64,000 bases of DNA from Candidatus Poribacteria bacterium (GTDB lineage: Bacteria; Poribacteria; WGA-4E; WGA-3G): NCBI GenBank assembly GCA_965232115.1, contig CBDDPD010000001.1, positions 16,626 to 80,625 of the forward strand, in the 5' to 3' direction. Shown here in pieces: positions 19,849 through 48,963 of this stretch. The notes under the pieces were generated by a model that was not told the DNA's origin, searched no databases, and saw only the letters and a program-made list of their open reading frames with translations. The stretch's first letter is position 1. The number at the start of each line of letters is the position of its first letter. A program made the translations under genes and the position numbers.

Positions 19849-21210
19849 CTACTCCAAAACCTTCAGGGTCTTGTTACCCGTTTCGCCTATCACAACGATG
19901 TAGATCGCTTTCTTCGGCTGATAGGAAATCCAACCCCAGATCTCAGAGCAGACGATGTATTCGACCTGCTTGAGCATATCCCGCGTCGTCTCAATAATGT
20001 CCGTGTTCATCTGGGAAACGTACTCGACCGCTTTCCGCTTGTCATACACGACAAAAGCATTGTGCTTCGTCGCTGAGTTCCCAGACCCCGCCTGAATCCG
20101 GTTCTCACAGTAGTCATGCCAGCCGACCCGAATCCCCTGCGCCAACTGGTTCATCACAGAGAAATTCCCGCCATACCCGCTCATGACGGCGTTGGGACGC
20201 TCGTTCATGTTCACTAACATCACGTTCGTCCCGGCGACTTTCGCCAGCTGGAGATCCGTAACATCCTCGTCCGTGCCGATTGCAGAGGTCAACATATAAG
20301 AGCGTTTGAACTTTTTCTGGAGCGCGAGCCACGCTTTCGGGGTCAGGGTATCCGTCGCCGATGCATCCAATTCCTGAAGCCGGAGGATCGTGCCACCGAG
20401 GTTGTCGCCACCGGCACCATGAAACACCGTCTCAAGCCCTTCATCGACCTTCGCCATAATCCGCTGGACACCGATCTCCTCAACGTGTTCCATCGCTTTG
20501 TCAATGAACTCGACTTCCCGGAGGTGTTCATATGTGAACGGGATGGCCAGCATCCGCTTCTTCGGCTGGATGGGGCGTTCAGAGGTGTCGAAGGTCGCCA
20601 TCGGCGGATCCGCCCCAGGGGTCCGCTGTTCCTCACGGAAGGCATCTTCCTCATACTCCAGGATCGTGGCGCGGTAGTCCTTCTTACTCGTCTCCGCCAT
20701 ACGCGTCGTGAGTTCCTCAAGGGCGATGTCGACTTCTACGTCTTCGTCCCAATGCGCCATCGCATCGTAGTAAGGGGTAAGTGTGGAGCCGGGTGGGGTG
20801 TCGTGGACATCCTGGAACGTGCCAGCGCGTTCCCAACGCGCACGTCTTTCGGCTTTCCGTGCCGCCGCTTCGATCTGCGGGCGATACACCGTACTCCGAT
20901 ACGCGTTCAGACACATCTCTTTGAGTGCCAACTCTTTCCCCGGATCGCCAATCACGTCTTCAGTGCGAGTCGGCCAAATGCCCGCCGCAGGGTTACACTC
21001 CGTGGTCATTTCTAACGCATCAAGCACCACCTCAAATCCGGAACGCCGGTCGTCATCGGCACCCAACTCGCCGTCTTTTTCTGGATCGTATTGGGAATCG
21101 AGATACGCGGAAAACGGCATACCCGCATCCGCCGCTTGCTCGACAAGCCCGGCACGCTGCGATGCATTCCCATACCTTTCTACGACCTCTCGTGTCGTCA
21201 TTAAAGCCAT
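19849..21210 (-). CDS. Major capsid protein
   Basis: 453 aa; follows protease/scaffold and decoration genes; HK97-like C-terminal pattern. Confidence 0.8.
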   Translation of the reverse strand: MALMTTREVVERYGNASQRAGLVEQAADAGMPFSAYLDSQYDPEKDGELGADDDRRSGFEVVLDALEMTTECNPAAGIWPTRTEDVIGDPGKELALKEMCLNAYRSTVYRPQIEAAARKAERRARWERAGTFQDVHDTPPGSTLTPYYDAMAHWDEDVEVDIALEELTTRMAETSKKDYRATILEYEEDAFREEQRTPGADPPMATFDTSERPIQPKKRMLAIPFTYEHLREVEFIDKAMEHVEEIGVQRIMAKVDEGLETVFHGAGGDNLGGTILRLQELDASATDTLTPKAWLALQKKFKRSYMLTSAIGTDEDVTDLQLAKVAGTNVMLVNMNERPNAVMSGYGGNFSVMNQLAQGIRVGWHDYCENRIQAGSGNSATKHNAFVVYDKRKAVEYVSQMNTDIIETTRDMLKQVEYIVCSEIWGWISYQPKKAIYIVVIGETGNKTLKVLE

Positions 21211-23420: not shown

Positions 23421-24863
23421 TCATCCGCTTGATGGCATCGCGGGGTGTGCCGCCGCATCGCTCAGGAAAGCCCTTACCGATTCCGGATGACCGCCATATA
23501 CCCGAAGCCCCGCAGAATGCTTGCTCTTTTCGGATTTGTACTTCTCCACGGCATCCTCGTAAACGTCTGCCTCAATGCCGTCAATGTCTTGTAGCTCTTT
23601 TAACTTCTTAAGGTTGTCAATTTTGACACCCTCGGCTTCAGCAATGGCTTTGACATCCATGGGATCTGGGGTGTTCTCAAAATAGAAAGCCACCTTCCCT
23701 TGCCGTCCCTCAGCCCGTAGCACATACCCGAGGAGCGTTGAGAATACGCCTGCTACCGTAGATTGAATACTGGATATGTTGATCCTGTAATCTCGTCTCT
23801 GTTCGACCGCGTGCGTTTCAGATTGATTTTCATTACTGTGCTGCTTAATCGGCGTGGAACCCGTCCCCCGTCCGACCCGACGGTCGTATAACCGCATCAG
23901 CCCATCGACGAGCCCGAAGAACGAGGTCTGCATCTGACCCCCTTTCGGCATGTTCACCGTCACGAGGTCCAAGTGGCTATACCCTTCATTGGGTTTCAGA
24001 TTCGAGTACATCTGGTTGATGCCAATCAGGAAATCCTGGATAAACGCGTCTTCAGCGTCCACATCCCCGACAACCTCAGGCGGCATGAAGTCTTTGAGAC
24101 GCTCAGTGTCAACCTCAAAATCAGGGCGTGCCCACCCTTGGGACTCCAGTACCCTCCGAAAATCATTCATCACGCCGAGCATCCGAATCACGTCCAAGGG
24201 TGCCGATTCCAACATAGACCTGCCAAACGGTTCATTCGGTCCCGCATTGAACGGCACATACATCACCGTCGGATCGTCATGTAACGATACCCATTTCCCG
24301 TTCTGCCACTGACCCAAGTGCCAGTCATTTCCCATTCGGGTGAAACGCGCCACATACGGATCCATCACAGCGATGTCCATCGCCATGTCCGCCGTTTCGT
24401 TGAGTTCCAACTCCCAAAAGATCGCACCGCCTTTGTAAATGCCGGCAAAAACTCTATCAATCAACACATCCGGGTCATGGTGTTTCGCCTCAAGCCTCGA
24501 AAAGAAATCGTCAATGATCGGCGTGGCACCCTTCGGCTTCACCTGATACCCCCAAGATTCATTCGCAGTCCGCAGGAAGTCCGTGTAGGCTTTATTGACC
24601 TCCGGGCTAATACTCGTCACGACCTTCATGAACTGATCCACCGGTAGATGGAGCAGCGCCTCTTCTGTCCAGTTTTTCAACTGCCAGACACTTCGGGACC
24701 GCTCCGGGGGTGCCACATGGTACATCGTCTGCTGCCGATGCGGATCCTGCATCGAGACGCGTCCGCCAGCCAATGCCCGTGTGTTCCGTAACCGTGCGAC
24801 CGCTCTTGGATCCCTACCGAAAAGCCGTTTGTTGAAGGTGCTCAGTGTTCGCTGCAGGTTCAT
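23421..24863 (-). CDS. Portal protein
   Basis: 480 aa between terL and protease; PFGRSMLES motif. Confidence 0.75.
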   Translation of the reverse strand: MNLQRTLSTFNKRLFGRDPRAVARLRNTRALAGGRVSMQDPHRQQTMYHVAPPERSRSVWQLKNWTEEALLHLPVDQFMKVVTSISPEVNKAYTDFLRTANESWGYQVKPKGATPIIDDFFSRLEAKHHDPDVLIDRVFAGIYKGGAIFWELELNETADMAMDIAVMDPYVARFTRMGNDWHLGQWQNGKWVSLHDDPTVMYVPFNAGPNEPFGRSMLESAPLDVIRMLGVMNDFRRVLESQGWARPDFEVDTERLKDFMPPEVVGDVDAEDAFIQDFLIGINQMYSNLKPNEGYSHLDLVTVNMPKGGQMQTSFFGLVDGLMRLYDRRVGRGTGSTPIKQHSNENQSETHAVEQRRDYRINISSIQSTVAGVFSTLLGYVLRAEGRQGKVAFYFENTPDPMDVKAIAEAEGVKIDNLKKLKELQDIDGIEADVYEDAVEKYKSEKSKHSAGLRVYGGHPESVRAFLSDAAAHPAMPSSG

Positions 24864-26567: not shown

Positions 26568-27203
26568 TCAAACAGCGACCTCTTTCTCTACGGCTTCCGG
26601 GAGCGACGCTAAAAGTTTATGCATCTCCACATCGTAATCTCCGACCACTTCCAACTGTTCCGCTGGCGGCAGACGCTCCAGGGCTTGCTGCTCTCGATGC
26701 TCCGTCTTTTGCTTCGCATCTTCTACCGCTTGACGCGTATTGTTGTCGTAACCCCGATGCACCAGATACCACCGCTTCATTAACTGATCGACCGTCGCAC
26801 CCAACCACCGTAGACTTTTGATCAGATTTATCGTCTCCTCTACTGTCGCCGCAGATAGCAAATCGCTTTTGATTTTGACCTTCAAATCGTCAAAGCATTC
26901 GTCAAAGAGATTTAACATCTTGTTAATTGTTTCTGTATTTTCAGCCTCTCCGCGCGAATTTTCCACCGCCGCCGGCATCTCTGGCACCCCGACTGCGGAC
27001 GCCGGTAAGGCATATAGACCCTGTTTTCTGCTAACGATCTTACCCGCTTCCTTGAGTTCCGAAAGGCACGTATCTATCGTCCTGTCCCCGCCTGAGACGG
27101 TATTCTTAATTGCAGCGGTTGTCTTTTCACCGCCTTCAAGGTACTTCAAAATATCTGCTTTGGTTTCGGGTTTTACTGTGCGTTTTGACATAGGTTTTTC
27201 CAA
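26568..27203 (-). CDS. Putative terminase small subunit with N-terminal winged HTH
   Basis: Directly upstream of terL; wHTH pattern (LSELKEAGKIVSRKQGLYAL). Confidence 0.55.
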   Translation of the reverse strand: MEKPMSKRTVKPETKADILKYLEGGEKTTAAIKNTVSGGDRTIDTCLSELKEAGKIVSRKQGLYALPASAVGVPEMPAAVENSRGEAENTETINKMLNLFDECFDDLKVKIKSDLLSAATVEETINLIKSLRWLGATVDQLMKRWYLVHRGYDNNTRQAVEDAKQKTEHREQQALERLPPAEQLEVVGDYDVEMHKLLASLPEAVEKEVAV

Positions 27204-27207: not shown

Positions 27208-27306
27208 GCAGAGGTTTCGCAAACGTTTTCGCAACGTTTTGCAGGGTTTTCGCAAGCGTTTCATAAGGGTTTCGCAAACGTTTTGCAGCGGTTTCGCAAA
27301 CGTTTT
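27208..27306. repeat. Nine tandem 11-bp repeats (consensus GCAAACGTTTY)
   Basis: Units start at 27208, 27219, ... 27296. Confidence 0.85.
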
Positions 27307-30077: not shown

Positions 30078-30491
30078 ATGAATAAAATCCAACTCCGAAA
30101 CGAAAACAAATTCCGAACCCCCATCCACGGACGCAACTTCCAAAGCACGACAACCTTTGTCGGCGCGCTTTACCCGGAGGGCAATGTCCAAATCTACTGG
30201 ACCTGGAAATGGTTCGACTTCCAACGCCACGAAAACTACGAAATTCATGGCGGTTCCCGATACTGCGGCTTCCAATTCCAGAACATGGGACACCTCATCG
30301 GGATGTGGGATACTCGGGAAATTATCACCGGGCTGCCCTACGACTTTTCGCATCTCATCACGACACACTTCACTGAGTTTTACAAAAAGCATATAACACC
30401 CTTCAGGCTTTCTCAAAAAGAACGAGAAGCCCTCGGTATCTCCGAAGAAGCATCCATCCAAACTCATAAAGCCGTTTGGGGCGAAAGATAG
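30078..30491 (+). CDS. Hypothetical protein
   Basis: 137 aa ORF. Confidence 0.5.
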   Translation: MNKIQLRNENKFRTPIHGRNFQSTTTFVGALYPEGNVQIYWTWKWFDFQRHENYEIHGGSRYCGFQFQNMGHLIGMWDTREIITGLPYDFSHLITTHFTEFYKKHITPFRLSQKEREALGISEEASIQTHKAVWGER

Positions 30492-30499
30492 AAGGATCC

Positions 30500-30856
30500 A
30501 TGAAACACTACACGGCAGATATTTCCGTAAAGCGCGTCGGCATCATCACCGCCCCGAAAATCCCGCCTGACCACCCAAACGTCCGATTTTCAAGTTGCCT
30601 CCATCGCGAAGTCTTTCCAGCTTCCGACATTGCAGAAGCGCGGCAACACGCCATCACACTCGTCGAAAATCCCAATACTCCCGAATTCCTAAAATGCCTC
30701 GATTTCTACTTTGTTCCGTTCAAAATCCTCCAGTGGCAAGACTGGCAAGATCCGATCCAACGGGAAGGCGAAACACAGATCCATTCCTGCAGCAGCCAAC
30801 CCTTTCTCGTCGGCGTGTTCACATGGATTGTCACACTCCTGGTTTACGAGGAATAG
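30500..30856 (+). CDS. Hypothetical protein
   Basis: ATG after AAGGA. Confidence 0.5.
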   Translation: MKHYTADISVKRVGIITAPKIPPDHPNVRFSSCLHREVFPASDIAEARQHAITLVENPNTPEFLKCLDFYFVPFKILQWQDWQDPIQREGETQIHSCSSQPFLVGVFTWIVTLLVYEE

Positions 30857-30956
30857 TTATCAGTTGTCAGTACGTTCCGCTGCGCTCCACTTTAGGGTGT
30901 AGGTGCGTTCGCTACGCTCACTTTTGGTTCTGGGTACGCTTCGCTTTAGAAGATAA

Positions 30957-32340
30957 GACAGCGCAAGCGTTACAGGGACATCTCATCTCATTATCCGCTT
31001 GATGGCGTGGCGCAGTGGGTTGTGCCGCCGCATCACCCACACCGCCCGCCCGTCGCTACTACGCTCGGTCGACCTTTGGGCAGTCCGCTATGCTCGTGCC
31101 TGCACGGATGCTCGTCGCCGTCCGCTCCAAAAAGCTCCACTACCGGCACACTTCGCTAACCGTCGCTGTCAACTTCGCAGGCGGAACTTGCCCGGCGCGC
31201 ACCCTTCGCTTGCTTTACATCTAACGTCCCCTCACAAAAGAGAAAAGCAAAGACACGCCAAGCGTTAGAATCCGTGTCGCTTGGCAAAGCGGGTTGTGCC
31301 GCCGCATACCCGCATTGCCCGCACGCCCCTACTTTCGTGCAGTTGTGCTTCGGTAGTAACCTTGTCAACTGCACTCGCCCTAACAGAGACCCCCCATCAC
31401 AAATCACGCCGCACCCCCTATACATACGAATACACCCACCCGCTAACCCCTGTGCCTGTGCGCAACTGTCGGAATGCTGGCTTTTCCTTTCCATACAACA
31501 CATCTCTATCTTTCCGTTCCGGCAGGCGAGCGGTTCTTAGCAGGTCTGCTGTGTGCTGTGTCCTCGTCAGTCGAGCAAGGAAACGGCAGAGTGCGAGGTG
31601 GGCTTTGTTGTGACAGCGGGTGCGGCATGCCGTTGTCCCCTCCGTTTGCATATTGCCTGCAAGCAGGAAAGGCAAATTGCCGCTCTTCGGCGTGCAGAGC
31701 CACGCACGCACCCGCACGTCACAAGTCGCTCCACCTTGCCGCACATTGCCTCAAAAACGGTCGCTCGACGGACGAGCACAGGCACAGGCATACCGCAAAA
31801 ACCGATTACCCGCGCTGCCTACTCTCCGTTTTCGAGACACACACGCAAAACCTTACCCTCACCACGCCAGCAACTTTTGAAGATACGCGCACGCACAGCC
31901 TATCCCTCAATCTACAGCCTTACTCAAAAGAAACGTACTTAACACTACAATCGCTCTTGGTATTGCCCACCCACAACCCCCGTTGGCGTGTGCAGTCGCA
32001 GAGCGATCGGTTGCGGGCATCCACAAAACAACGCTTTTCGTTCCTCCCCGCTACGGCAGGCGCAGTCGTCCGGCGCAGGCGGGGGTGTCAGACTTGCGTG
32101 ATGCGCACGCACCCGTAAGTCACTTGCACTGCATTTCACTTGGCAATTGACAACGGTTGCGGTCATCACCCGGCGTCTGACCCTGTGCCGCTTCGCCTTT
32201 GTGCGCGCTGCCTTCGCTATGCATCTTCTCAAAATACCCAATTCGGTATCAGTACATGCCCGCAGATTTTCTATAAACGCACACGCCCCGCCTCCCTATA
32301 CACAATGCCATCGGTCGCTTAACTGTTGTCGCAGTTTTTA
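30957..32340 (+). ncRNA. Candidate large structured RNA (or structured ssDNA element)
   Basis: No convincing gene; nested long-range helices; G-U wobbles favour the + strand; boundaries approximate. Confidence 0.45.
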
Positions 32341-32878
32341 GCAGAATTGGTACGGGTTGGCGATTACGCCAAATCCGTTGGCAGAACATACACAAGCATA
32401 ACCGCAAGGTAACGTGTCTGCCTCCCATTAAGGCATTTCAGGCAGTTGGGTTGATTTTTGAGGTCAGCGATTCCGCGTAAATGTAGATATTGGAAAAGAG
32501 TTTAATCAAGTGTAGCACGTTTGGGGGTGGGCGGTTTTCGGTTCGGTCTCAGCTGGGTCTGGGTCATCGTCGGTTGGGCGCGTTCGCTTGCATGGGCTTC
32601 TGGTCGCCGCTCCACTATGTTACGCGGCGGTTTCCGGTTCAGTCTCAGCTGGGTTTGGGCATTGGGCGCGGAACAAAGTAGAAATTATCAGAATACGTCA
32701 AGTAATCCTTACACCTATAATCCGCCAGTTGCTTACCGTATCGCGCGTTTTCTGGCGATTTTTCCCGGAATTTGCCCTAATTTCCTTCTAATTTCACGGC
32801 TTTACTCAAAAAAAATTGAGTATTTTCCAAAAAAATTAGCGAATTTCGGCAAAAAATGTGCTTTTTTGCGTTTTTTAC

Positions 32879-33012
32879 TTGACAATAAATACAGGTATAT
32901 GTTAAACTATATAGAACAATATGAGGGGCACTGCAATGCCCCCCGAACCAAAATCCAAGGATCAACTCGGCTTGGTATTTAAATCCTACCGTGAAATGCC
33001 TGCCGTTGTCAA
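32879..33012. promoter_or_regulatory. Convergent promoter pair with hairpin (antisense module 2)
   Basis: + TTGACA-18-TAAACT; - TTGACA-18-TAGGAT (33012-32983); hairpin GGGGCA-CTGCAA-TGCCCC. Confidence 0.6.
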
Positions 33013-33030
33013 CCCAAAAAGGAATTTACA

Positions 33031-33600
33031 GTGAACGATAAAAAAGTTCCAACCGCTGAAAGGCTTGCGGAAGCGTGGCGGAAACACCCCGGATTTGGCG
33101 CGCCACACTGGCACGAAGGCAAATGGGTATGGCTCTCACCAAATGGTGATGCCTACACCAAATGCGGCTCACCGATCCCACCCCCAAAAGCGGACGAGGT
33201 CAAACCCCACGAACAGCAACTGTGGGAAAAGTGCTGGAAATGCAATACCATCCGTCCCTGGGGCGGATGTGGTAGTAAAACACCGGCACCGGAATGGGGA
33301 ATGTCCTGGACGGTTCCCGTCGACAAAACGCCGATAGAAAAACCGGAACCCGAACTCACAGAAGTTAACTTCCCTACCGCCATTCTCGTCGTCCTTGAAA
33401 AAATGACAGAATGCGCCACTTTCGGCGACTGGCTCACTGAAGATGAAATCGTCGTCGTTGCTACCCGGCACTTCAACTACAAAATCGACACCACGTCACT
33501 CCTCGATCTGCTCCGTCCGTTGTGGCACGCGGGACACATCGAACACAAGCGGAACCAATCCGGGCAGCATACCTTCCGCTTAAAAGGAAATATGCCATGA
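33031..33600 (+). CDS. Hypothetical protein with C-terminal winged-helix-like domain
   Basis: AAGGA RBS; C-terminal domain paralogous to 34477..34800. Confidence 0.6.
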   Translation: MNDKKVPTAERLAEAWRKHPGFGAPHWHEGKWVWLSPNGDAYTKCGSPIPPPKADEVKPHEQQLWEKCWKCNTIRPWGGCGSKTPAPEWGMSWTVPVDKTPIEKPEPELTEVNFPTAILVVLEKMTECATFGDWLTEDEIVVVATRHFNYKIDTTSLLDLLRPLWHAGHIEHKRNQSGQHTFRLKGNMP

Positions 33601-33860
33601 AAAAATCCTTTTTCCTCTATCCAACCACCGGCGGTGATATTGTGCTAAGTGGCTATCCCAGCTGGGTACGCCACTCCAATGTCTATCCGTTTCGGCTTTA
33701 TACTTTTCTCCTCGATGAACACTCCAGTCAGCGCATCGGAGAAAAATCTGTCACCCTCAATAGTGTCGAACTCCTGTCAGATGAAAGCACGGCTCCGAGG
33801 CTTCCGATCGACACACCCTCGGAACAACTCATACTCAACTTCACACCGTGGCGGCGATAA
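33597..33860 (+). CDS. Hypothetical protein
   Basis: ATGA overlap with previous stop. Confidence 0.5.
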   Translation: MKKSFFLYPTTGGDIVLSGYPSWVRHSNVYPFRLYTFLLDEHSSQRIGEKSVTLNSVELLSDESTAPRLPIDTPSEQLILNFTPWRR

Positions 33861-33881
33861 TCATGAGACGTGAGACATCCA

Positions 33882-38266: not shown

Positions 38267-40843
38267 TTATTCGTCTCCGTTTATCTTGGCACCTACTTCT
38301 GGAAATTTCTCCTCGCTGAATACGAGATCGAAGACACCTTCGCGCGCTGTTCCATCATGTACCCGCATTGTGCCTGCGCTGTTGAATTTTTCTTCAAGGG
38401 TTTTCAAAACCTTTTCCTTATACTCGGTATCGGGGTTGCCTTCGAGCTGATCGCCTTTTGTGTCGAATAGTAACACACGTGTTATTCCTTTAACTTCATT
38501 TGTCATTGCGACGAAATCGGGGTAAATGCGTTGTTGTTTCCAGCCCTGGACGTAGTACTCACCGCGTTGACGTGCTGCGATTCGATGCCACCATTGCATT
38601 GCCTTCTGTTCGTCGAGATAATAGGCAAAGTTGGTTTCTAATTCGTTATCAAAGTGTTGTTCAAACACTGGTTCAAAGAGGCTAAGCTGCACGGATTTAC
38701 CATAATTTGCGAGCGGTTTATCGTTGGCTCGAACTTCGATTTCATAGCTCTCGCGAAGTTTGTAATTAGGTTCTTTCGCCTCTAAGTCGAATTTGATTTC
38801 ACCATACTTCAATTTGCTACGAAAGATCTGCTCTGCCTGGTGTTCAACTTCACGTTTTACATGTTCTCGTAATATGTGGACGAGATAAGAACGTCTATCG
38901 TAGATATTTTCTTCGGTTTTACCGTCTTGTTTAAGGTTCTCGCGCAACTGTGTTGCGATGCGAGCGGCTTGCCATGAATTGGGTAGAAGGTCTGAGAGAC
39001 GGCGTGCGAAATCTGAGATACTGGTTGTTTTGTTAATATAGGGTTGTTGGTCATCATGGTAAACGAGTGGCGCGTCCCCGATGTTAACTACCGCCGATTG
39101 CCAAATCATACTTTCGGCTGCGGAGGCATTCGGATTTGGAGCCTGGATCTCGGACCATTTTATATGCGGTAGGATATGTGCCTGATAATTGAGTTGGCTC
39201 CAGTCGTCTTCATTTTTATGGAGGACCATAGGTAAATAGATAACCTGAGATCGAAATTTATATCGGCGTTCCATGTCTTGTGTGCGGAGTTCCTCGGTTT
39301 CTGTTGTATCAGATGCGCCGATGACTTGATCATCTAAACCTGTGAGTCCTTCGGATTCTAGCCCATTTTTGATTTGCTTGACGGCGACAGCAACATCGGT
39401 ATTATTGCAATAGACATAACACTGATTGAGAGCTTCTCTATCTGTGAGTTGTGCGTGGGGTTGTCGCATGACGCGTCCTACAAGTTGTGTAAGGGCTTTT
39501 TGTGCCTGTGTATTGTCGAGCATGACCAACAAATAAGCGAAGGGGCAGTCCCATCCTTCCATGAGTGCGGATTTCGTGATGATCCAGCGGACCTGTGACG
39601 TTTTGGAAAGCAGGTTTTCTCCAGCGAGTTCATCGTTTTCGGCGGATTTGACCCGGATGGCCTCGGGTGGAACACCTAAGCGTTTAAGATAGTCACGGGC
39701 ATCTTCGGCGTGGATTCGTTCTTGATCTCTCTGATCGCTACCTGTTCGCTCAACTCGGACAACGGCGATAGGTCGAATGTAGCGGTCTGTCGTGCTTTCA
39801 AATGCCTTTGCCTCAGTATCAAGCCGATTGAGTTCATCAACAGCTTGCTGTAGTGTGTATTGCCAATTATCGCGCCATGTGGTTGATCCTGCGTTCTTCT
39901 GTTTGGAGGATCTCACTTGAATAGGCAACTTAATCATTTCTTCTTTTTTGAGGTCGATTCCGTCTATATCAACGAGCAGGTTGCTGATGCCGTGATTCGG
40001 GGTGGCGGAGAGTTCTATTACGGTTCGAGGGTTGAGTCGATTAATGGAGCGTGCGAATTCTTCATTGGATTCTCGTTTGCTGGCACCATAGGCTTTGTGT
40101 GCCTCGTCTAAAACGACTACAGGACGGAGCATTTTGAAGACGTTAAACAGGCTCTGCTTGACAAATCCAGTATTTTTATGACACTCCAGATCGGGATATT
40201 CATTTCGCATGCGTGCATCGCCAAGGACATCGTCGCTATCGGGGAAAAAACTGGGATACTTTCCGGTATCTCTAAACATTCGGAGGAATTCCTTGCCCTC
40301 TTGTCGATTCGCGGCGGGTAGCATGAGGAGCATGACGCAGAGGTAATTTGCTATATCGCCTCTGTTGAAGGTATCATCCTTTTCGAGCATTTTGACTTGC
40401 CCGGCACTTGCACGTTCTAACATTTTACGATAGGGATGTTGTTTGTCCCACAAAGCGGCTTTGGTCTGTGCGTAGATCGCTTTAGATGGAACGATCCACA
40501 GCGTTAGCCCGCGCTGCCGATGGAGCCGCTCCAAAGCGGATGCTGCGAGTAATGTTTTTCCACCACCTGTTGGCACCTTGAAACAGATATGTGGAATGGG
40601 GCGGTTTGCGTCATCGGTACGTGCGATATAATCGCCAGCACTTGGTGCGATACCTCCGGTTTGTTTCAAATTTTCCCATGCCTTTTTGGGAAAGTTCCGC
40701 AGATCGTCAGGAATATCATGAATTTCTGCTGCTCTCAGTGCCTTTATAGCGGTTTTTGCGGTATTCTTGGCTTTAGACAATTCTTCAAGCCAACGGGTGA
40801 AGGCATCGAGTGTGTTTTGTTGATATATTTTTAATTCCATCAT
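38267..40843 (-). CDS. res: Type III restriction endonuclease subunit
   Basis: VPTGGGKT, DEAH, SATP, EGWD helicase motifs; C-terminal YPDF...DTKG. Confidence 0.9.
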   Translation of the reverse strand: MMELKIYQQNTLDAFTRWLEELSKAKNTAKTAIKALRAAEIHDIPDDLRNFPKKAWENLKQTGGIAPSAGDYIARTDDANRPIPHICFKVPTGGGKTLLAASALERLHRQRGLTLWIVPSKAIYAQTKAALWDKQHPYRKMLERASAGQVKMLEKDDTFNRGDIANYLCVMLLMLPAANRQEGKEFLRMFRDTGKYPSFFPDSDDVLGDARMRNEYPDLECHKNTGFVKQSLFNVFKMLRPVVVLDEAHKAYGASKRESNEEFARSINRLNPRTVIELSATPNHGISNLLVDIDGIDLKKEEMIKLPIQVRSSKQKNAGSTTWRDNWQYTLQQAVDELNRLDTEAKAFESTTDRYIRPIAVVRVERTGSDQRDQERIHAEDARDYLKRLGVPPEAIRVKSAENDELAGENLLSKTSQVRWIITKSALMEGWDCPFAYLLVMLDNTQAQKALTQLVGRVMRQPHAQLTDREALNQCYVYCNNTDVAVAVKQIKNGLESEGLTGLDDQVIGASDTTETEELRTQDMERRYKFRSQVIYLPMVLHKNEDDWSQLNYQAHILPHIKWSEIQAPNPNASAAESMIWQSAVVNIGDAPLVYHDDQQPYINKTTSISDFARRLSDLLPNSWQAARIATQLRENLKQDGKTEENIYDRRSYLVHILREHVKREVEHQAEQIFRSKLKYGEIKFDLEAKEPNYKLRESYEIEVRANDKPLANYGKSVQLSLFEPVFEQHFDNELETNFAYYLDEQKAMQWWHRIAARQRGEYYVQGWKQQRIYPDFVAMTNEVKGITRVLLFDTKGDQLEGNPDTEYKEKVLKTLEEKFNSAGTMRVHDGTAREGVFDLVFSEEKFPEVGAKINGDE

Positions 40844-40855
40844 GGTGTCACCTCT

Positions 40856-42472
40856 TTATTTTTCAAGTAGTGCGTAGGGGAGTTGGGCAAAAGCGATTCC
40901 CATTTTTGTAAGTTCACGCTGTCCAATGTAATTACCTGCTGCATAGACGACTGCTTTTCTGCCGTTCTTGAAGCTGGCATCTCGGATGCGTTGGGCATGC
41001 TCTTGGGAGAGTATTGCAGCGTCGCTGGATAAAAACTCCAAATTGGGTTGGTAGAGCAAATAGTAATCGTTTTCGCTATCACCATAAAATAATCCATCAT
41101 CATTTTTCGGATTCAGTGTTGTATCACCAACAGACGCGCCTACGGCAGTAAATAACAAGTGTGCAGCCAAATCCGAATACGAGGGCAGAGATTCCCCTGT
41201 AAGCATGCCTTCTATTTCGATAGGTTTGCCCAGAGTGCAGTAGGTGAATGAACCGCCGAGACCCTTCTTCAACGTTTTATCTTTAGCATTCTCAACTCCA
41301 TTTATGACGCGTCGGACGCGTTCAGCAGTGATGCTATCGGCGTAGTCTTCGCATTCTACCAAGATAAACTTCCGATTGCCTCCATCCTCTTTGTTCAGGG
41401 CGAGGACGGCGTGGGCAGTAGTGCCACTGCCTGCGAAGGAGTCCAAGACGATGTCATTGGGTTGCGTCCCTATTTGTAAAATACGTTTTAGCAAAGTGTG
41501 TGGTTTAGGATTCGGGAAGGCAACCCCAATTTTATTCAGCCCTTGCGTTGCACTCTGGGTATGTCCTACATCCTCGTGTAACCATAGAGTTAGTGGCGTA
41601 ATCCCTTGTTTTACCTCCGATAGAAACCGCTTTATGCGAGGAACATTATTGCCATCTTCACCAAACCATATCCGATTATCATTCACTAATATATCAAACC
41701 TCTCTTTACTATATCTCCAACATGTATTTCTAGGCGGGCTCACAACTCTACCGGATGGAGTAGTAATAGGATAGTCATAATCTTCCTGATATGTTTTAAC
41801 ATCCAATCCACTTGAACTCCAAGATCCGCGTGGGTCGTTGTCAGGATTAGAATATCGCTTGTTGTGTTTTTCAGTTCGCGGTAGGAGAATTGGTCTCCAT
41901 ATTTCTTTATCTTTTGCGTAGCACAACACAAAATCGTGATTATCGGAAAAATACTTCGCATCATTTTGCGGACTAAATTTTTTCTGCCAAATTATGTTAG
42001 TTACAAAATTTTCTGTTCCAAAAATTTCATTCATCAGCATTCGCAAATGATGTTGCTCGTTGTCATCAATAGATATAAAAATTACACCGTCCTCAGCAAG
42101 CAATTCTTTTAGCAGGTGCAACCTGGGCCACATCATGCAGAGCCACTTATCATGGCGTTCCATATCTTCGCCGTCAACAGGACTATGCTTTTTGAACCAC
42201 TCCTGCATGGGCGGATTGTTTATATTGTCATTATAGATCCACCGCTCATTTCCAGTGTTGTAGGGCGGATCAATATAGATGCACTTAACACGATTTGCGT
42301 AGTAGGGGAGTAACGCCTTGAGAGCGTGTAGATTATCGCCCTGAATAATGAGGTTATCTTCATTACCCGATGGACTGCAGGACCGGCCTGCATCCTGTCT
42401 AAGTTGTCGGTAGGGGACGGAGAGATGATGTGCATAGATATAGTGTTTTCCTTTGAATTCGAGTACTGGCAT
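40856..42472 (-). CDS. mod: Type III adenine methyltransferase, copy 2
   Basis: DPPY followed by DSFAGSGTT (beta class). Confidence 0.92.
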   Translation of the reverse strand: MPVLEFKGKHYIYAHHLSVPYRQLRQDAGRSCSPSGNEDNLIIQGDNLHALKALLPYYANRVKCIYIDPPYNTGNERWIYNDNINNPPMQEWFKKHSPVDGEDMERHDKWLCMMWPRLHLLKELLAEDGVIFISIDDNEQHHLRMLMNEIFGTENFVTNIIWQKKFSPQNDAKYFSDNHDFVLCYAKDKEIWRPILLPRTEKHNKRYSNPDNDPRGSWSSSGLDVKTYQEDYDYPITTPSGRVVSPPRNTCWRYSKERFDILVNDNRIWFGEDGNNVPRIKRFLSEVKQGITPLTLWLHEDVGHTQSATQGLNKIGVAFPNPKPHTLLKRILQIGTQPNDIVLDSFAGSGTTAHAVLALNKEDGGNRKFILVECEDYADSITAERVRRVINGVENAKDKTLKKGLGGSFTYCTLGKPIEIEGMLTGESLPSYSDLAAHLLFTAVGASVGDTTLNPKNDDGLFYGDSENDYYLLYQPNLEFLSSDAAILSQEHAQRIRDASFKNGRKAVVYAAGNYIGQRELTKMGIAFAQLPYALLEK

Positions 42473-42520
42473 GTTGAAAATTCTCCTTGGATCTTCGTAA
42501 TCCAGCTAAGCGTCACCTCT

Positions 42521-44143
42521 TTACCTTTCGTGTAGTGCGTAGGGGAGTTGGGCAAAAGCGATTCCCATTTTTGTAAGTTCACGCTGTCCAATGTAATTAC
42601 CTGCTGCATAGACGACTGCTTTTCTGCCGTTCTTGAAGCTGGCATCTCGGATGCGTTGGGCATGCTCTTGGGAGAGTATTGCAGCGTCGCTGGATAAAAA
42701 CTCCAGATTGGGTTGGTAGAGCAGGTAGTAATCGTTTTTGTCATCGCTATAAAATAGTCCATCATCGTTTTTGTCATCCAGGGTCGTATCCCCAACAGAC
42801 CTACCAATAGCAGCAAATAACAAGTGTGCAGCGAGTGCTGAATATGATGGCAAAGATTCTCCTGTGAGCATCCCTTCTACTTCAGTAGGTTCTCCGAGTG
42901 TACAATAGGTGAATGAACCACCGAGACCTTCCTTTAACGTCTTATCTTTAGCATTCTCAACTCCATTTATGACGCGTCGGATGCGTTCGGCTGTGATGTC
43001 GTTGGCATAATTTTCACATTCTACCAAGATGAACTTCCGATTGCCTTCGTTCTCTTTGTTGAGCCCAAGAACAGCATGCGCTGTCGTCCCGCTGCCCGCA
43101 AATGAGTCCAAGATGATGTCATCGGGACCGGTAGTTAGTAATATTATATGTTGAATAAGCCCAACGGATTTCGGGGAGTTGAAAACGTTGCCTCCCATGA
43201 TGCTGTTTACTGCCTGGGTAGCGGATTGCGTGGAGCCAACCTCATCCGTTGTTAAAATAGAATTTGATACCATGCCCGACTTCACCTCAGAAAGGTACTT
43301 TTTAAGACGCGGGACGTTTTGGCCTTTCTTCCCGAAAAATAAATATCCTTCTTTGTAAAGGGACAACAGGCGGTCTTTTGTGAATTTAGGAAATGTTCCA
43401 CTCGGTGGGATCCAAGTCACACCGTTAGGAAACGTCACAGTATACACATCTTCAGGTCTACCACTTTTGGCTTGAAGTGCTACGCTCTGCCATGGACCAC
43501 GAGGATCGTTGTCAGGGTTCTTGTATCGCTGATTCGCCTTTTCGCTCCTCGGAAGCAGATTAAACTTTTGAAAGTCATCACTTTTACGGTAACAAACGAT
43601 GTATTCGTGATTAACTGATGCAAACTTTGCATCATTTTGGACAACATTTTTCTTATTCCATACGAACTGTGTTACGAAATTCTCCGCACCAAAAATTTCA
43701 TCCATAAGCATCCGCAGATGATGCAGTTCATTATCATCAATAGAGATGAAGATTACGCCATCATTGCTAAGAAATTCTTTTAGCAGGTGCAACCTGGGCC
43801 ACATCATGCAGAGCCACTTATCATGGCGTTCCATATCTTCGATGTCGATAGGACTATGCTTTTTGAACCACTCCTGCATGGGTGGATTATTTACATTGTC
43901 ATTATAGATCCACCCTTCATTACCGGTGTTATAGGGTGGGTCAATATAGATACATTTGACACGGTTCGCGTAGTAGGGGAGCAAAGCTTTGAGGGCGTGC
44001 AAGTTATCGCCGTGAATGATGAGATTATCTTCCCCATTGGATGGGTTGCAGGATCGGCTTTGGTCGGATTCAAGGGGGCGATACGGGACAGAGAGATGGT
44101 GGGCGTAGATATGGTGTTTTCCTTTGAATTCAAGTGTAGGCAT
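42521..44143 (-). CDS. mod: Type III adenine methyltransferase, copy 1
   Basis: DPPY and DSFAGSGTT; central region differs from copy 2. Confidence 0.92.
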   Translation of the reverse strand: MPTLEFKGKHHIYAHHLSVPYRPLESDQSRSCNPSNGEDNLIIHGDNLHALKALLPYYANRVKCIYIDPPYNTGNEGWIYNDNVNNPPMQEWFKKHSPIDIEDMERHDKWLCMMWPRLHLLKEFLSNDGVIFISIDDNELHHLRMLMDEIFGAENFVTQFVWNKKNVVQNDAKFASVNHEYIVCYRKSDDFQKFNLLPRSEKANQRYKNPDNDPRGPWQSVALQAKSGRPEDVYTVTFPNGVTWIPPSGTFPKFTKDRLLSLYKEGYLFFGKKGQNVPRLKKYLSEVKSGMVSNSILTTDEVGSTQSATQAVNSIMGGNVFNSPKSVGLIQHIILLTTGPDDIILDSFAGSGTTAHAVLGLNKENEGNRKFILVECENYANDITAERIRRVINGVENAKDKTLKEGLGGSFTYCTLGEPTEVEGMLTGESLPSYSALAAHLLFAAIGRSVGDTTLDDKNDDGLFYSDDKNDYYLLYQPNLEFLSSDAAILSQEHAQRIRDASFKNGRKAVVYAAGNYIGQRELTKMGIAFAQLPYALHER

Positions 44144-44280
44144 GTTGAAAATCCTCTCCTTTGTTTTTAAGGCAACTGAAGCAATATCAGCCCTTCTTCT
44201 TGCTCTGAATTTCGCCTTGTGGACGTGCTTAGGTATCGCGCCCGGTTAAAGTTACGCATTTCCCCTTAGAGCTTTCTATC

Positions 44281-44377
44281 TCAAGCGAGGCGGATCGCAT
44301 TCTCTACCAACTACGTTGAGAACAGTATAGCGGTTTATGGGCTTCTTATCAAGGAAAGAATGTGGAAAGTTTCAATC
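44281..44377 (-). promoter_or_regulatory. Duplicate of the copy A promoter and 5' half of its leader
   Basis: Matches ~6710-6806; TTGATA...TATACT; identity ends just past the P3 loop. Confidence 0.75.
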
Positions 44378-44501
44378 TAAAGAGGCTCAGTCCTACCAAC
44401 CATCTTCACCGTTATCCCTTCTCACCAAAGGGTTTTGATAGGATACCGGCTGCTGCACGGTCAGTTGTTTGGCTTCATTATCTCGTACCCTTTGAGTGTG
44501 T

Positions 44502-45167
44502 TCATTTTTTTAAATCTTCGCGCTCAACACCGAGTGTGTCTTTGAGTTCCCCAAGATTTTCAACGAGCATTGCCCCTTCAATGTTCGCTTCGACATGCCG
44601 CGTGATAATCACCGCACGTCCTTGCCTTAATGCATGGTTTGCGGTTGCAGACGAGCCCGATCGCTCTTTCGCCGCAATAATGATCGTCTTTTCGGAGAGC
44701 CCCGTGATAATCGCATCGCGACGCAGATAGTGACGACCAAATATTTCTGCGAGGTCGTCAGGATATTCCGAAAGGACAGTTCCATCCGCCGCAAAAATTT
44801 TCTCAGCGAGTTTTTTGGTATGTCCTCGGAGTGATTTCAGGCCACGCGGAACGACCCCAATCACGTTGCCACCTGCTGAAAGCGCACCCTCCGTCGCAGA
44901 AGTGTCGCACCCCTCGGCAAGCCCATCGACGATCGTATACCCGTGTTGGGCGAGCATCCTGCCGATTCTGTACGCGGCATCAAGTGCCTGTTGTGTTGTT
45001 TTTCGGCTTCCAGAGATCGCGATAATTTTCCTATGGGGTGGTAGGCTTCCACGGATGCGGATCGCTTTGGGTGGGTTTCTTATTGACTTTAGCAGTTCGG
45101 GATAGTTTCTATCGCTAATTTCAATTTCTCGCACTTCGGATTCGTCAAAATGTTCCACTTCAGACAT
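44502..45167 (-). CDS. DprA/Smf-like (SLOG/Rossmann) protein
   Basis: YPELLKSI.NPP, ISGSRK, GLAEGCD, LSEYP, RRDAIITGLS, SGSSATA. Confidence 0.85.
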   Translation of the reverse strand: MSEVEHFDESEVREIEISDRNYPELLKSIRNPPKAIRIRGSLPPHRKIIAISGSRKTTQQALDAAYRIGRMLAQHGYTIVDGLAEGCDTSATEGALSAGGNVIGVVPRGLKSLRGHTKKLAEKIFAADGTVLSEYPDDLAEIFGRHYLRRDAIITGLSEKTIIIAAKERSGSSATANHALRQGRAVIITRHVEANIEGAMLVENLGELKDTLGVEREDLKK

Positions 45168-45170
45168 ACT

Positions 45171-47141
45171 TTATCCATTTCTGTACCATTCCAAAGGTTT
45201 CCATATTTGCCGGATTTCCTCAATGAGTTTTTCGCTACGTGCGTCAATTTCATTGATGTCCCACTGTTCATGTTCTCGGATTTCCCTATTGAGTATTAGA
45301 TTGGAATCCTTTAGAGCCTCCTTCTTCTCGTCAAATGGTCGGTTCCCCAGTCTTGAGTTTAGGGCTTTGTTAACAAGTGTAAGATTTCCAATGCTTTCAA
45401 GGAGTGCATTTCTGGCGATTATTAAATTATAAGCACTGGTATAAGTCTCTTCGACTAATCCCTTATGTGAAGTATCGGTACTTGGATTTGAAAACAATTC
45501 GTGGTAAAGTTTGCGTTCACTTTGCACATTTGTATTTACAATGACCTTGTGTGCGTCCGGATCGAGCGAGACAGCTTTGGGGTTAATCGGTAAATCCCAT
45601 TTTTCCTGCCAAGTTTGTGGCATGACATGTTCTAAATCCAACTTTTCTTCAAAGACTATTTTTTCGCTATATTTGTTATCTCTCTGTTTTTCCATTTCTA
45701 TCCGATATAAAATATAGCGAATAAGTCTTCGTTTTATCGCACCCGCTGTTTGCTCCCAAAGCCCAGACAAAGCCGCTTTTATATACTGATTGTGTGGGAA
45801 AATGATAGTCTCTCTGTCGGGGAAGTTGAGAGGGTTAGGTTCAAAGCGTGTGTATAAAGCATCTCTGATCTGATGGTCTGTTGGGTAATTCGTCGTATCA
45901 GAAGTCTCGTCATCGAGGTATTGTATAAACCCGTCTAAACTAAACCCGCCTTGAAAATGTTTTATAACTCTGGCAAAGAATTTGTTATAATTTTTGAGGC
46001 CGCCTTTACCACTGCAGCATAACATACGCCGGAGCGTGTAAGATTCTAAAATATCAAAGACGCGTTCAAGTTCAGTGTTTCCTAGTTTGGCATCACAAAT
46101 GACAAACAACAAGAAAGGATGCAAGGTGGTCAAGTCAAATATTTTGTAGAATTCCATGCGGGTGGCGATGAAGGTATTTTCATCGCAGTTCGTCATTTCG
46201 CTATAAACATCGGAATACTCTTTTAATAGAATAAACTCATCTTCTACTGTTTTATCCTCCTGTTTAAGTTTATCCATATAATCGCGTTCATAGGTCGTAA
46301 ATTCAGGTTTTACATCTTCTGTTCCGAGATTTGCTATCAAGAAATGATGAAAGAACTGCTCATAGGAAGTGCCTATTTTTGTAATGCCCGGATCCCAATA
46401 ATTATCCTCAAAATGCTCCCAATATTTTTCATATAAATCATCTCTACTTGTGCGAGCTCGTAGGAATAGATTATTGCGGAGTTTATCAAATTCTAACAGC
46501 TCTTTGCCTCTGGCATTCAGCGATTCAAATATCTTTTCCGGTTTATCTGCTTCACTAATGCGGATTTGAACAAAGCCAAAGTTGTTTATAATAACCTCGT
46601 ACAAATTTTTGATTTTTTTCGGGTCTATATCAACGTGGTCCTCTACCTTATCACGAAAATAACTATACGCAGCATAAACCTGCCCGGTGCTATTGCTTCT
46701 GTTTCCATCAATGAGCGCAATAAAAGATGTTTTATTCCGTTTTGTCGGTATGATTTTATAACGCTCCTCTGGCTTGAGTTCAGCCTCCCCATTATTTCTT
46801 ATGTATTTACAAACCTCATTGGCAATCTCCGTATGTCCGTTTTGCATACATATATCTCTGATTGCGCAAAGCATGATTTGGAAAGTTGTCAGTCGCTGTT
46901 GTCCATCAATAATATCAAATATCTGAACACCGGGTGATGCTGGTTGTTGTTGGATAACAATAGTCCCCGTGAAATGACTTGTACTGCCTACCTTCATCTG
47001 CTGTGAAATATCAAGCCATAAAGGTTCCCACTGCTTTGTACGATCCCATACATAATGCCGTTGGAATAAAGGTATCCTAAATTGTACGGAAGGTTTAAAC
47101 ATATCGGATAAGGTTACTTGATCTACATTCATTCTATACAC
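45171..47141 (-). CDS. GmrSD-like DUF262 + DUF1524 (HNH) type IV restriction protein
   Basis: IPLFQRHYVW, DGQQRLTT, FESLNARG; EHVMPQ, IGNLTL...N. Confidence 0.88.
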   Translation of the reverse strand: MYRMNVDQVTLSDMFKPSVQFRIPLFQRHYVWDRTKQWEPLWLDISQQMKVGSTSHFTGTIVIQQQPASPGVQIFDIIDGQQRLTTFQIMLCAIRDICMQNGHTEIANEVCKYIRNNGEAELKPEERYKIIPTKRNKTSFIALIDGNRSNSTGQVYAAYSYFRDKVEDHVDIDPKKIKNLYEVIINNFGFVQIRISEADKPEKIFESLNARGKELLEFDKLRNNLFLRARTSRDDLYEKYWEHFEDNYWDPGITKIGTSYEQFFHHFLIANLGTEDVKPEFTTYERDYMDKLKQEDKTVEDEFILLKEYSDVYSEMTNCDENTFIATRMEFYKIFDLTTLHPFLLFVICDAKLGNTELERVFDILESYTLRRMLCCSGKGGLKNYNKFFARVIKHFQGGFSLDGFIQYLDDETSDTTNYPTDHQIRDALYTRFEPNPLNFPDRETIIFPHNQYIKAALSGLWEQTAGAIKRRLIRYILYRIEMEKQRDNKYSEKIVFEEKLDLEHVMPQTWQEKWDLPINPKAVSLDPDAHKVIVNTNVQSERKLYHELFSNPSTDTSHKGLVEETYTSAYNLIIARNALLESIGNLTLVNKALNSRLGNRPFDEKKEALKDSNLILNREIREHEQWDINEIDARSEKLIEEIRQIWKPLEWYRNG

Positions 47142-47178
47142 CTCTTTTACTTTTCTAAATTCCTAACACTATATTGGA

Positions 47179-47271
47179 TTTCCCAGTCCCAGTCCTTTAT
47201 CCAACTACCACGGTGGAAGGGTGGCAGAATCAGAGTGGGGTCCGATTCGTGGTAGTGCCACCCAAAACTGG
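47179..47271 (-). ncRNA. Structured leader RNA, copy C
   Basis: P1 CCAGTTTT/AGGACTGG; P2 GGGTGGCA/TGCCACCC; P3 GAATCGG/CTGATTC; P4 TCCA/TGGA; kissing CTACCAC/GTGGTAG; second P1' GACTGG; promoter TTGTAA-18-TATACT (47308-47279). Confidence 0.7.
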
Positions 47272-47348
47272 TTTGAACAGTATAATACAAAAAACGAAAA
47301 AATTACAAATTTCCTTCCTGAGGTCCTTTGTCTCTCCTCATTTCCTTG

Positions 47349-47906
47349 TCATGCAGTCAACTGCGCCCACGGATAGAGGTGCGTCCAATCTTTGCTGAAA
47401 ATCACCCGAACTGGTCGATACGCTTCCGCACACAACCGCAAGAAAACGGTATATACCAACGCCCGATGATTCCCATCTTCAAGGTAAAACCTGATTTTCG
47501 GGGAATGTGCGGGTTTCTCATAAGCAGCTAGGGGTCTCACCAACAATTCCCCCATCAAGCGCGGATCAAACCTCGCACTAATAAGAAAGCATCCCTCAAA
47601 CCACGGCTCATCCTCAGAGAGATGCTTAAAAACTTTGATGGGACTCTCGTACGGATATGCCTTCAGAATTCTGTCTACGACTTCTTTCAGCGTGCGCGAC
47701 TTGCCTTTCGGTGTTAGCGTGTCTACCAACTTCTGATTATCCGCCCACACATTGTTATTCGCTTCCATGAAAACGAGGTCATAGAAGTCTACCTCATCTA
47801 GCGTGAACGTTTCGTACACGGCACTCTCTATCCGATGTCGGATGGCTTCGTATTCAGATGGAGATGCTGATAACTGATGTGCATCCGCTAATAGGAGTTC
47901 TTTCAC
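47349..47906 (-). CDS. Hypothetical protein with ParB/Srx-like motif
   Basis: YLEDGNHRAL. Confidence 0.5.
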   Translation of the reverse strand: MKELLLADAHQLSASPSEYEAIRHRIESAVYETFTLDEVDFYDLVFMEANNNVWADNQKLVDTLTPKGKSRTLKEVVDRILKAYPYESPIKVFKHLSEDEPWFEGCFLISARFDPRLMGELLVRPLAAYEKPAHSPKIRFYLEDGNHRALVYTVFLRLCAEAYRPVRVIFSKDWTHLYPWAQLTA

Positions 47907-47908
47907 GT

Positions 47909-48898: not shown

Positions 48899-48963
48899 AG
48901 CATTCTCCTCTTCAATCTCACAATCGAGTTCAAAGCACCACTATTGGAGGGGCAATAAGCATC

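Follow-up and report, generated by a model that had tools for sequence, protein, structure and literature searches.

The noncoding module described here occupies positions 30942-32375 of a 64,000-nucleotide stretch of DNA (the window), which corresponds to positions 16626-80625 of the 84,083-bp contig C2 (GC content 48.6%) of Candidatus Poribacteria, an uncultured sponge symbiont. C2 is binned with the 5.45-Mb chromosome C1 in genome G000. Since phage genes (terminase, portal, head) occur on it together with Rep_3, iterons, ParA and a tyrosine recombinase, C2 is, judged by gene content, a phage-plasmid. The module sits in the early (+ strand) region, where the upstream + strand operon lies at 28.4-30.9 kb, and it forms the unique part, or core, of a noncoding stretch of ~30857-33030 (2.2 kb) that is wider than first noted. 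The GC content of the module is 55-60%, against 48% for the contig. An earlier note on this DNA had described a gene-free region with extensive nested base pairing and proposed it as a candidate giant noncoding RNA. Based on our results, the module is a real, unusual and unexplained noncoding island, and the proposal of a giant noncoding RNA is only partly supported: the lack of genes, folding better than that of shuffles, core conservation and a wobble bias speak for it, while the absence of an Rfam match, dispensable hairpins, uncompensated changes and the lack of a delimiting promoter or terminator do not. The elements recognised within the module are as follows, with z values giving folding energy relative to dinucleotide shuffles.

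31001-31054, + strand: hairpin i, three stacked helices with a CGCC loop (-33.1 kcal/mol, z -3.66, 0/200 shuffles as good)
31252-31285, + strand: interleaved helices of 6 and 8 bp with an 8-nt loop between them, identified by sequence inspection
31283-31319, + strand: hairpin ii, the second GGGTTGTGC-CGCC-GCAT-ACCC hairpin (z -2.70 for 31240-31330, interleaved helices included)
31337-31374, + strand: hairpin iii (-16.8 kcal/mol, z -1.19, not significant)
31547-31797, either strand: the rod, an imperfect 250-nt hairpin (~89 bp) that has internal loops rich in A and branches three ways at its tip
32050-32215, + strand: domain 2, a hairpin of 165 nt; strains differ in having or lacking its tip (~32081-32188), the sequence of the basal helix being kept

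All of the paired segments that the earlier note listed for the rod and domain 2 were found both in the sequence and in minimum-free-energy folds. The rod is built from 31563-31576/31763-31776, 31585-31601/31731-50 and 31608-24/31707-24, and domain 2 from 32055-64/32202-12, 32071-79/32182-90 and 32087-93/32175-81. The recurring hairpin GGGTTGTGC-CGCC-GCAT..ACCC is likewise present at both of its sites, starting at 31017 and 31291, and the crossing helices could be read from the sequence as GACACG/CGTGTC (31252-57/31273-78) and GCCAAGCG/CGCTTGGC (31257-64/31278-85). These two helices could represent alternative hairpins or a strained pseudoknot.

The comparison with shuffled sequence proposed at the outset came out in favour of structure: the whole module (30942-32340) gave z -5.22 on the + strand and -3.02 on the - strand, with 0/24 shuffles as good on either strand. 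When 150-nt windows inside the module were folded on the + strand, however, z was -2 or lower in 5/18 and ~0 or above in 12/18. Thus the pairing is organised as five discrete hairpins (i, ii, iii, the rod and domain 2) rather than as one continuous nested fold; the folding excess comes wholly from these hairpins and the linkers fold no better than chance. Per 150 nt the G-poor linkers reach -13 to -20 kcal/mol on the + strand versus -36 to -44 kcal/mol on the - strand. What stands of the extensive nested pairing first reported is therefore the strong hairpins, not the single nested fold. Domain 2 (32030-32230) gave z -2.64 on the + strand (2/200 shuffles as good) and -1.51 on the - strand (16/200).

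The core was matched in 2/175 other genomes of the phylum, both of the same genus, and it occurs at a single place in G000, with no further copy in that genome. Among nine IMG/VR contigs with a related terminase, one (locus L009) carries the core and the other eight have no comparable GC-rich gap. Locus L009 from viral_contigs, locus L136 from genome_contigs and the match in genome G066 are evidently one 51,973-nt contig and were counted as one relative; because it was found via its terminase and not via the module, L009 is the sole unbiased comparison. Exact-pattern scans returned 77 stretches in viral_contigs, the real ones being those of the L009 contig only, 23 in genome_contigs, one of them real, and 29 in metagenome_contigs, none real. 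Translations of module open reading frames (ORFs) matched 0 loci and 1 locus in viral_contigs, the latter on the same contig as L009, and the phage and plasmid collections gave no match to the module. The module is present in about ten public studies. A global alignment with L009 gave the following picture.

Gene left of the module: 80.6% identity
30942-31321/2 (block A): 95.8% identity over 380 nt, the most conserved part of the module
31322-31393: 72-nt segment not in L009, carrying hairpin iii
31394-31442: 95.9% identity
31443-31973: 531-nt segment not in L009, carrying the rod, its edges being imperfect ~20-nt direct repeats, ACACCCACCCGCTAACCCCTGT and TGCCCACCCACAACCCCCGTT
31974-32088: 85.2% identity
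Tip of domain 2: 100-nt segment not in L009
32189-32375 (right block, 3' base of domain 2 plus linker): 96.8% identity over 187 nt
32185-33863 (right stretch): ~84% identity

Third codon positions of the gene at 33031-33600 differ from L009 by ~39% (39/~100 in 33085-33384). Because identity in the core is 96-97% against this third-position divergence nearby, the two core blocks are as conserved as the non-synonymous sites of neighbouring proteins. The edge repeats of the 531-nt segment fit an old duplication or a repeat-mediated deletion in L009, and no terminal inverted repeat was seen on the segment by sequence inspection. L009 also has ~2 kb of extra genes left of 30942. A perfect 17-nt inverted repeat, 30702-18/32669-85, was considered as a closure of the whole region and dropped: just 11/17 positions are complementary in L009, with no compensation, so the repeat is probably chance or recent.

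Contigs from four coded runs of four studies were also aligned to the region, runs X7, X8 and X13 having been chosen by shared module words. The X7, X8 and X13 contigs span from 30942 to 31726-31983 gap-free, with 13/785, 21/983 and 29/1042 differences, and carry sequence of the 531-nt segment without gaps. The X7 and X8 contigs join an L009-type left flank at exactly 30942 (loose ends), and run X8 contains both the long domain 2 and a form in which 32081-32185 is replaced by four letters. Judged from these alignments, the form with the rod is also present on another backbone, domain 2 is polymorphic at its tip, and 30942 is a fixed, sharp junction, the left flanks of different backbones being unrelated. 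Flank contigs from the same three runs are 84-87% identical and do not bridge to the module; they may therefore stem from other related phages.

A more distant relative, L002 (at a contig start, G030:C56), shares 71% identity over 180 nt of block A. It keeps perfect islands, one of them a 20/20 match (CCGCTCCAAAAAGCTCCACT) within which lies the direct repeat GCTCCA-N4-GCTCCA. L002 has its own long rod (z -5.2/-6.1), which could not be aligned with that of the window: the local score was 23 versus a shuffled mean of 22.2, and the MAFFT/RNAalifold alignment was poor. The motif CGCTCCAC showed no enrichment in the chromosome. The L002 module copy is followed by a mini CRISPR array (G030:C56 1590-1783) of three repeats and two spacers, whose repeats belong to the family of an 88-repeat array in G000 (C1:3889486-3896021); the leader of the latter is ordinary, and cas4/cas1/cas2-like genes, recognised by eye, lie nearby. 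A link between CRISPR and the module was rejected, as 0/86 own spacers match C2 beyond one 14-nt chance match.

Although ORFs of up to 214 aa exist in the module (e.g. 31474-32118), their translations are noise-like and of low complexity and run through both arms of the rod. The called module ORFs had no Pfam or PHROG match, and 0/20 stop-to-stop frames matched Pfam at E <= 0.01. The 214-aa ORF is represented by just two near-identical clusters (P0001 and P0002, 96% and 91% aa identity) among 5.8 billion proteins, and P0002 shows the domain-2 deletion as a frameshifted tail. Differences from L009 are in excess at third positions in the genes at 30476-30856 and 33031-33600 and have no 3-periodicity across ~30857-33030, and the 100-nt and 1-nt indels disrupt every frame of the module. 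No small hydrophobic ORF preceded by a Shine-Dalgarno sequence, of the type I toxin kind, was found in the module. We conclude that the module at 30942-32375 is noncoding. The gene-free character claimed for the region thus holds, and the search of the overlapping ORFs for a conserved protein, which would have spoken against an RNA, yielded none. An unrecognised or decayed protein gene in an overlapping ORF such as 31474-32118 would at least account for the existence of a 214-aa frame, for the prediction of the same ORF by gene callers elsewhere and for two indels against L009 (72 and 531 nt) that are multiples of three. Set against the frame-breaking indels, the frameshifted tail, the low-complexity translation without a family match, the lack of periodicity, the absence of a type I toxin ORF and the mere two clusters, it is the least probable of the explanations considered.

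The rod region (31500-31800) gave z -5.36 on the + strand and -5.16 on the - strand, with 0/100 shuffles as good. Inverted repeats were ranked by scoring 22,135 overlapping 500-nt windows of the genome, each against its own reverse complement, which left 529 merged loci scoring at least 80. With a score of 154 (99.9th percentile 129.7) the rod ranks fourth of these 529 in the 5.5-Mb genome, and it is the sole GC-rich one (61%) among the 12 top-scoring inverted-repeat windows inspected. No other copy of the rod was found in G000, in 64 further genomes of the genus or in IMG/VR.

Conjugative plasmids carry single-stranded DNA promoters and priming sites of the Frpo and ssi type which, like the rod, are imperfect hairpins of rod shape, a few hundred nucleotides in length, in noncoding plasmid DNA. 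As such an element, the rod would fold in incoming or displaced single-stranded DNA and recruit RNA polymerase or the primosome. The rod's size and its imperfect stem agree with this, and G-T wobbles are tolerated in single-stranded DNA too. However, a scan of 30400-33200 found no -35/-10 pair within 31547-31797, the stem is 61% GC and has no TATAAT-like box, and the window ORFs that were scanned included no relaxase or type IV secretion family, the sole match being TraN at E 0.008, under the cut-off. The rod is, moreover, not in L009, and Rep_3 plasmids replicate by theta mode. We therefore regard a role of this type as very improbable.

Indications of a strand came from the other hairpins. 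The G-U wobbles that the earlier note had placed on the + strand were borne out in the small hairpins and domain 2, where nine G-U pairs lie on the + strand and none on the - strand (five and none in domain 2 alone). Hairpins i and ii are paralogues. When three distinct copies were compared, 11/15 pairs were invariant and, between hairpins i and ii, 2/15 had changed on both sides (G-C/A-U and U-A/C-G). Additionally, all three distinct copies keep one + strand G-U pair, which on the opposite strand would read C-A. Differences at 31266, 31268 and 31269 (relative to L009, X7, X8 and X13) all fall in the loop and leave both interleaved helices intact; the mapping of X7, X8 and X13 differences onto stems covers the best-supported ones only, with 232 further differences outside it.

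A one-strand G-U bias would not be produced by sites that act as duplex DNA, and this bears on the view of the module as a DNA-level cis element, namely a lytic second origin, a recombination site or a protein-binding platform, in which cruciforms or single-stranded DNA hairpins form and the conserved islands are binding sites. Phage-plasmids may have a separate lytic origin. Such an element would suit the observations that the best-conserved parts are sequence islands without RNA structure, such as GCTCCA-N4-GCTCCA, that hairpins i and ii form a pair of 22-bp quasi-palindromes with a spacing of 274 bp and that the rod is equally good on both strands. Yet the helices at 31252-31285 are interleaved rather than palindromic, no adjoining replication or recombination gene was recognised, and 30942-32375, at 55-60% GC, contains neither iterons or other tandem repeats nor an AT-rich unwinding stretch. 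The features of an iteron origin are found instead at 51.5-55.3 kb, with Rep_3, the iterons and the GC-skew minimum all at ~52-55 kb, and the plasmid origin near 53.5 kb is ~22 kb distant from the hairpin module. A DNA-level element is thus unlikely in our estimation.

The surroundings of the core are of a kind ordinary in the genus and contain dispersed sequences, as listed below.

30852-30941, + strand: left edge of the noncoding stretch, made up of copies of 'fam1', an intergenic repeat dispersed in Poribacteria, directly 3' of the stop codon of the gene at 30476-30856 and outside the conserved module
32320-32450, + strand: orphan promoter-plus-leader copy of the type that precedes tnpB (IS605 OrfB-type) genes in chromosomes of the genus
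32520-32665, + strand: two copies of a dispersed intergenic repeat ('fam3'), forming a direct repeat 32530-63/32626-59 that is 91% identical
32879-32908, + strand: sigma-70-like promoter, TTGACA, 18 nt, TG-n-TAAACT (consensus scan 10/12, pattern match only)

The fam1 repeat has a 31-nt period present 2.3 times, with ~51 BLAST matches in C1, six in C2 and many in genomes of the genus; its fold is not significant (z +1.6 and +0.8). Copies of fam3 occur in chromosomes of the genus, for example between atpH and atpA in L104. Nine chromosomal copies (L106-L108, L115, L116, L118 and L120-L122) were aligned with 32320-32450 and show TTGACA-N17-TATAAT followed by a conserved hairpin leader. The conserved unit consists of a terminator-like hairpin, the TTGACA-N17-TATAAT promoter and a ~60-nt leader with a GCAA-capped hairpin, and is found in many genomes of the genus. 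The ORF downstream of the chromosomal copies is 371-427 aa long in 8/9 and 179 aa in L115; we take these ORFs to be TnpB-like from a C-terminal zinc-finger/RuvC motif recognised by eye, without a Pfam scan. The chromosomal unit has no Rfam match; it could represent either the left end of an insertion sequence (IS) or a 5' leader RNA of tnpB that has not been described before. At 32320-32450 itself there is no tnpB-type ORF downstream and no right-end similarity of the IS200/IS605 kind.

The next operon, from 33031, is preceded by an AT-rich promoter region (32700-33030), and the promoter-like site at 32879-32908, itself preceded by A/T tracts, is predicted to serve this operon. A - strand promoter-like site, TTGACA/TAGGAT at 33012-32983, faces the + strand site, the starts predicted from these pattern matches lying ~60 nt apart. 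The switch promoters of coliphage 186 face each other in a similar way.

Part of hairpin i (5' arm, loop and the first portion of the 3' arm) recurs as a third copy at 23423-23459 on the + strand, at the portal 3' end. The match to 30993-31034 extends over 42 nt (81%, two perfect 14-nt runs, E 7e-5 within C2). The 17-mer core of the hairpin has four matches in the window versus 0.13 expected, the copy at 23423-23459 having one mismatch. The last 12 codons of portal and its stop codon come from this 36-42-nt segment homologous to hairpin i, and 4 nt separate the end of the copy from the GGAG ahead of the GTG of the next gene. Since the late genes are encoded by the - strand, opposite to the copy, any + strand transcript of the module would show complementarity to the late portal/scaffold mRNA at this place. 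The copy may also merely record a small insertion.

Taken together, these results lead us to favour, tentatively, the reading that 30942-32375 is a lineage-specific noncoding module acting as a + strand RNA. No terminator or promoter was found between the module and the upstream + strand operon, a terminator-like fold after the upstream gene being absent (30850-30945, z +1.6); read-through from this operon into the module would therefore be expected. The product would be a long untranslated RNA in which five independent hairpin domains are joined by barely folding, G-poor linkers. The hairpins could then provide control at the RNA level, for example as sites of processing or stability, with the long stems serving as sites for a double-strand-specific nuclease or as protein-binding rods. 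The duplicated hairpin i/ii might in addition pair in trans with the late portal/scaffold mRNA that carries the complementary 42-nt copy. The long hairpins would be accessory, as they can be lost while the core stays.

A number of results weigh against an RNA function. No Rfam family matched the 64-kb window at the gathering score (4227 models), and the best-conserved stretch, 31060-31240, has no significant fold (z +0.4 and +0.5). L009 lacks the three segments listed above by clean deletions, each of which takes a hairpin with it. In the stems, the L009 substitutions at 31018, 31051 and 32055 disrupt pairs without compensation. The rod has five G-U pairs on each strand, so the strand preference of the wobbles does not extend to it, and of the two changes at its paired positions deduced from the P0001 and P0002 translations, the - strand alone would accommodate one and the + strand alone the other. 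The double changes between hairpins i and ii were matched by 61/500 shuffles, with three distinct sequences only; because so few sequences are involved, the compensatory pattern in these hairpins is no more than suggestive. Scanning 30400-33200 revealed neither a sigma-70-like promoter at the left boundary of the module nor a convincing terminator at the right one, and among the public runs that match 30900-32400 there is none recorded as RNA. The portal gene of L009 has no hairpin copy and ends ~30 nt earlier, so the antisense link is not general. Finally, since X7, X8 and X13 were selected by words of the module itself, their high identity arises partly by selection and they are not an unbiased sample, and the high identity of the core could reflect recent horizontal spread rather than constraint.

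Spread of this kind is central to another explanation, that of selfish or relic DNA: the gap would have gathered palindromic insertions, host repeats and an IS relic, and the module would be a recently exchanged passenger. Borders of the gap that consist of dispersed repeats from three families and of a tnpB leader without its gene would be as expected, as would the sharp junction at 30942 with its two unrelated flanks and the landing of a piece of hairpin i at the end of portal, where it supplied the stop codon. Three hairpins behave as clean indels, the 531-nt one edged by imperfect ~20-nt direct repeats; the changes in L009 stems lack compensation, the window rod cannot be aligned with that of L002, and just two of the other genomes of the phylum have the module. 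In contrast, neither the rod nor hairpin i/ii is multi-copy (one G000 match, with the 64 further genomes of the genus at control level), and the GC content is 10 points above that of the genome, opposite to what is usual for a decaying spacer. Compensatory changes and a one-strand G-U bias, as well as the perfect islands kept in L002 at 71% identity, also speak against relic DNA, and phage packaging limits purge useless DNA. We consider this explanation possible, if somewhat unlikely.

A more specific form of the RNA reading is that the module encodes a new regulatory RNA of the phage-plasmid. In it, hairpins i and ii of an untranslated early transcript would pair in trans with the late portal/scaffold mRNA and keep the structural genes switched off. 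The rod would serve as decoy or sink, and the RNA-binding factor of the host that it captures might be RNase III, RNA polymerase or a defence protein that senses RNA. This proposal, which we nevertheless consider improbable, agrees with the bias of the wobbles to the + strand, with the compensatory changes, with the antisense copy at 23423-23459 and with the exceptional rank of the rod.

Comparison with known families did not place the module. At E up to 5, Rfam gave just two chance-level matches in 30700-33100 (an miRNA and the OppA thermometer), both far under the cut-off, and L002 had no Rfam match. GOLLD and ROOL, large ornate RNAs that phages and prophages often carry and that we take to be included among the 4227 models, are thus not recognised in the window, in line with the failure of the earlier note to match them. 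The module resembles these RNAs as a kilobase-scale noncoding stretch on a phage-type element that is GC-rich relative to the genome and has many helices. It differs from them in consisting of five separate hairpins with unstructured linkers instead of a compact multi-junction fold, in that three of its hairpins are dispensable, and in having no family of relatives.

In its possible mode of action the module comes closest to RNase III sites and to trans-acting immunity RNAs. The former, known from early transcripts of phages (T7 early region, lambda sib), are processing hairpins of ~50-60 nt each, closely packed between genes. Similarly, the module places long imperfect hairpins between operons on an early polycistronic transcript, and their stems with internal loops would be substrates; at 1.4 kb with a 250-nt rod, however, it is far from that size. 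Processing of the RNase III type is, by this analogy, most plausibly how the region works. Trans-acting immunity RNAs are known from phage-plasmids and satellites (P1/P7 c4 and P4 CI RNA). They share with the module the repeated short hairpins on an untranslated early transcript, the complementary copy near a target ribosome-binding site (here 23423-23459) and the phage-plasmid host, but there is no sequence or Rfam similarity and the target copy is not in L009. The rod also recalls 6S RNA, which is likewise an elongated, imperfectly paired duplex interrupted by internal loops and whose length is of a roughly similar order. In contrast to 6S RNA, the rod matches no Rfam model, is missing from L009 and was not seen to have a promoter of its own, and its biggest internal loop, ~8 x 12 nt, is no large central bubble. 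Like REP/BIME, MITE and PATE elements, the hairpin segments come and go as units between strains, and true dispersed host repeats flank the module; the rod, domain 2 and hairpin i/ii, however, are not dispersed. Allowing up to three mismatches, the hairpin motif was found in 9/65 genomes of the genus including G000, with single matches outside G000 and G066 that are no commoner than those of a reversed-pattern control. Those portions of the literature on Poribacteria phages and plasmids and on large phage noncoding RNAs that were available contain no description of such an element.

Almost nothing is known about the regulation of mobile elements in uncultured sponge-symbiont Poribacteria. If the module acts as RNA, it would be a new large noncoding RNA on a phage-plasmid, with the portal/scaffold junction as a concrete target. 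If it is passenger DNA, it would illustrate that long GC-rich palindromes can persist and pass between phage backbones. As the module occurs in just two of the other genomes of the phylum, its direct reach beyond the lineage is limited.

The genes and repeats that identify C2 and locate its replication module are listed below.

19849-21210, - strand: major head protein, phage gene
23421-24863, - strand: portal, phage gene
25125-26564, - strand: large terminase, phage gene
51504-52808, - strand: Rep_3 initiator, plasmid gene
53531-53640: five 22-nt iterons
55201-55282: four 20-nt repeats, 98% identity
59225-59845: ParA, plasmid gene
60675-61451: tyrosine recombinase, listed among the plasmid genes

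The cumulative GC-skew minimum of C2 falls at ~54-55 kb of the window, inside the replication module (51504-55282). The proteins neighbouring the hairpin module, encoded at 30476-30856 and 33031-33600, had best ESM Atlas scores of 0.81 and 0.86, under the 0.9 line, and gave no usable lead.

Several further features of C2 were observed. About four copies of the 22-nt repeat GTTTCGCAACGGTTTCGCAAAC lie at 27214-27306, in the divergent gap between a small gene (26568-27203, - strand) and the + strand early genes, and are candidate operator or packaging sites. A 156-nt unit is present in two tandem copies, 96% identical, at 56720-57030, overlapping an ORF at 56692-57057 (- strand). The phage-plasmid also has a block of defence-type genes at 38267-49434, which encodes a ResIII/DEAD helicase (858 aa), two N6/N4 methylases and a DprA/SLOG protein, as well as GmrSD, an HNH-DUF4268 protein and a ThsB-like TIR protein. 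Lastly, a homing-endonuclease gene of the GIY-YIG plus NUMOD3 type (11158-12024) lies amid the structural genes and contains an internal 51-nt repeat at 11692-11810.

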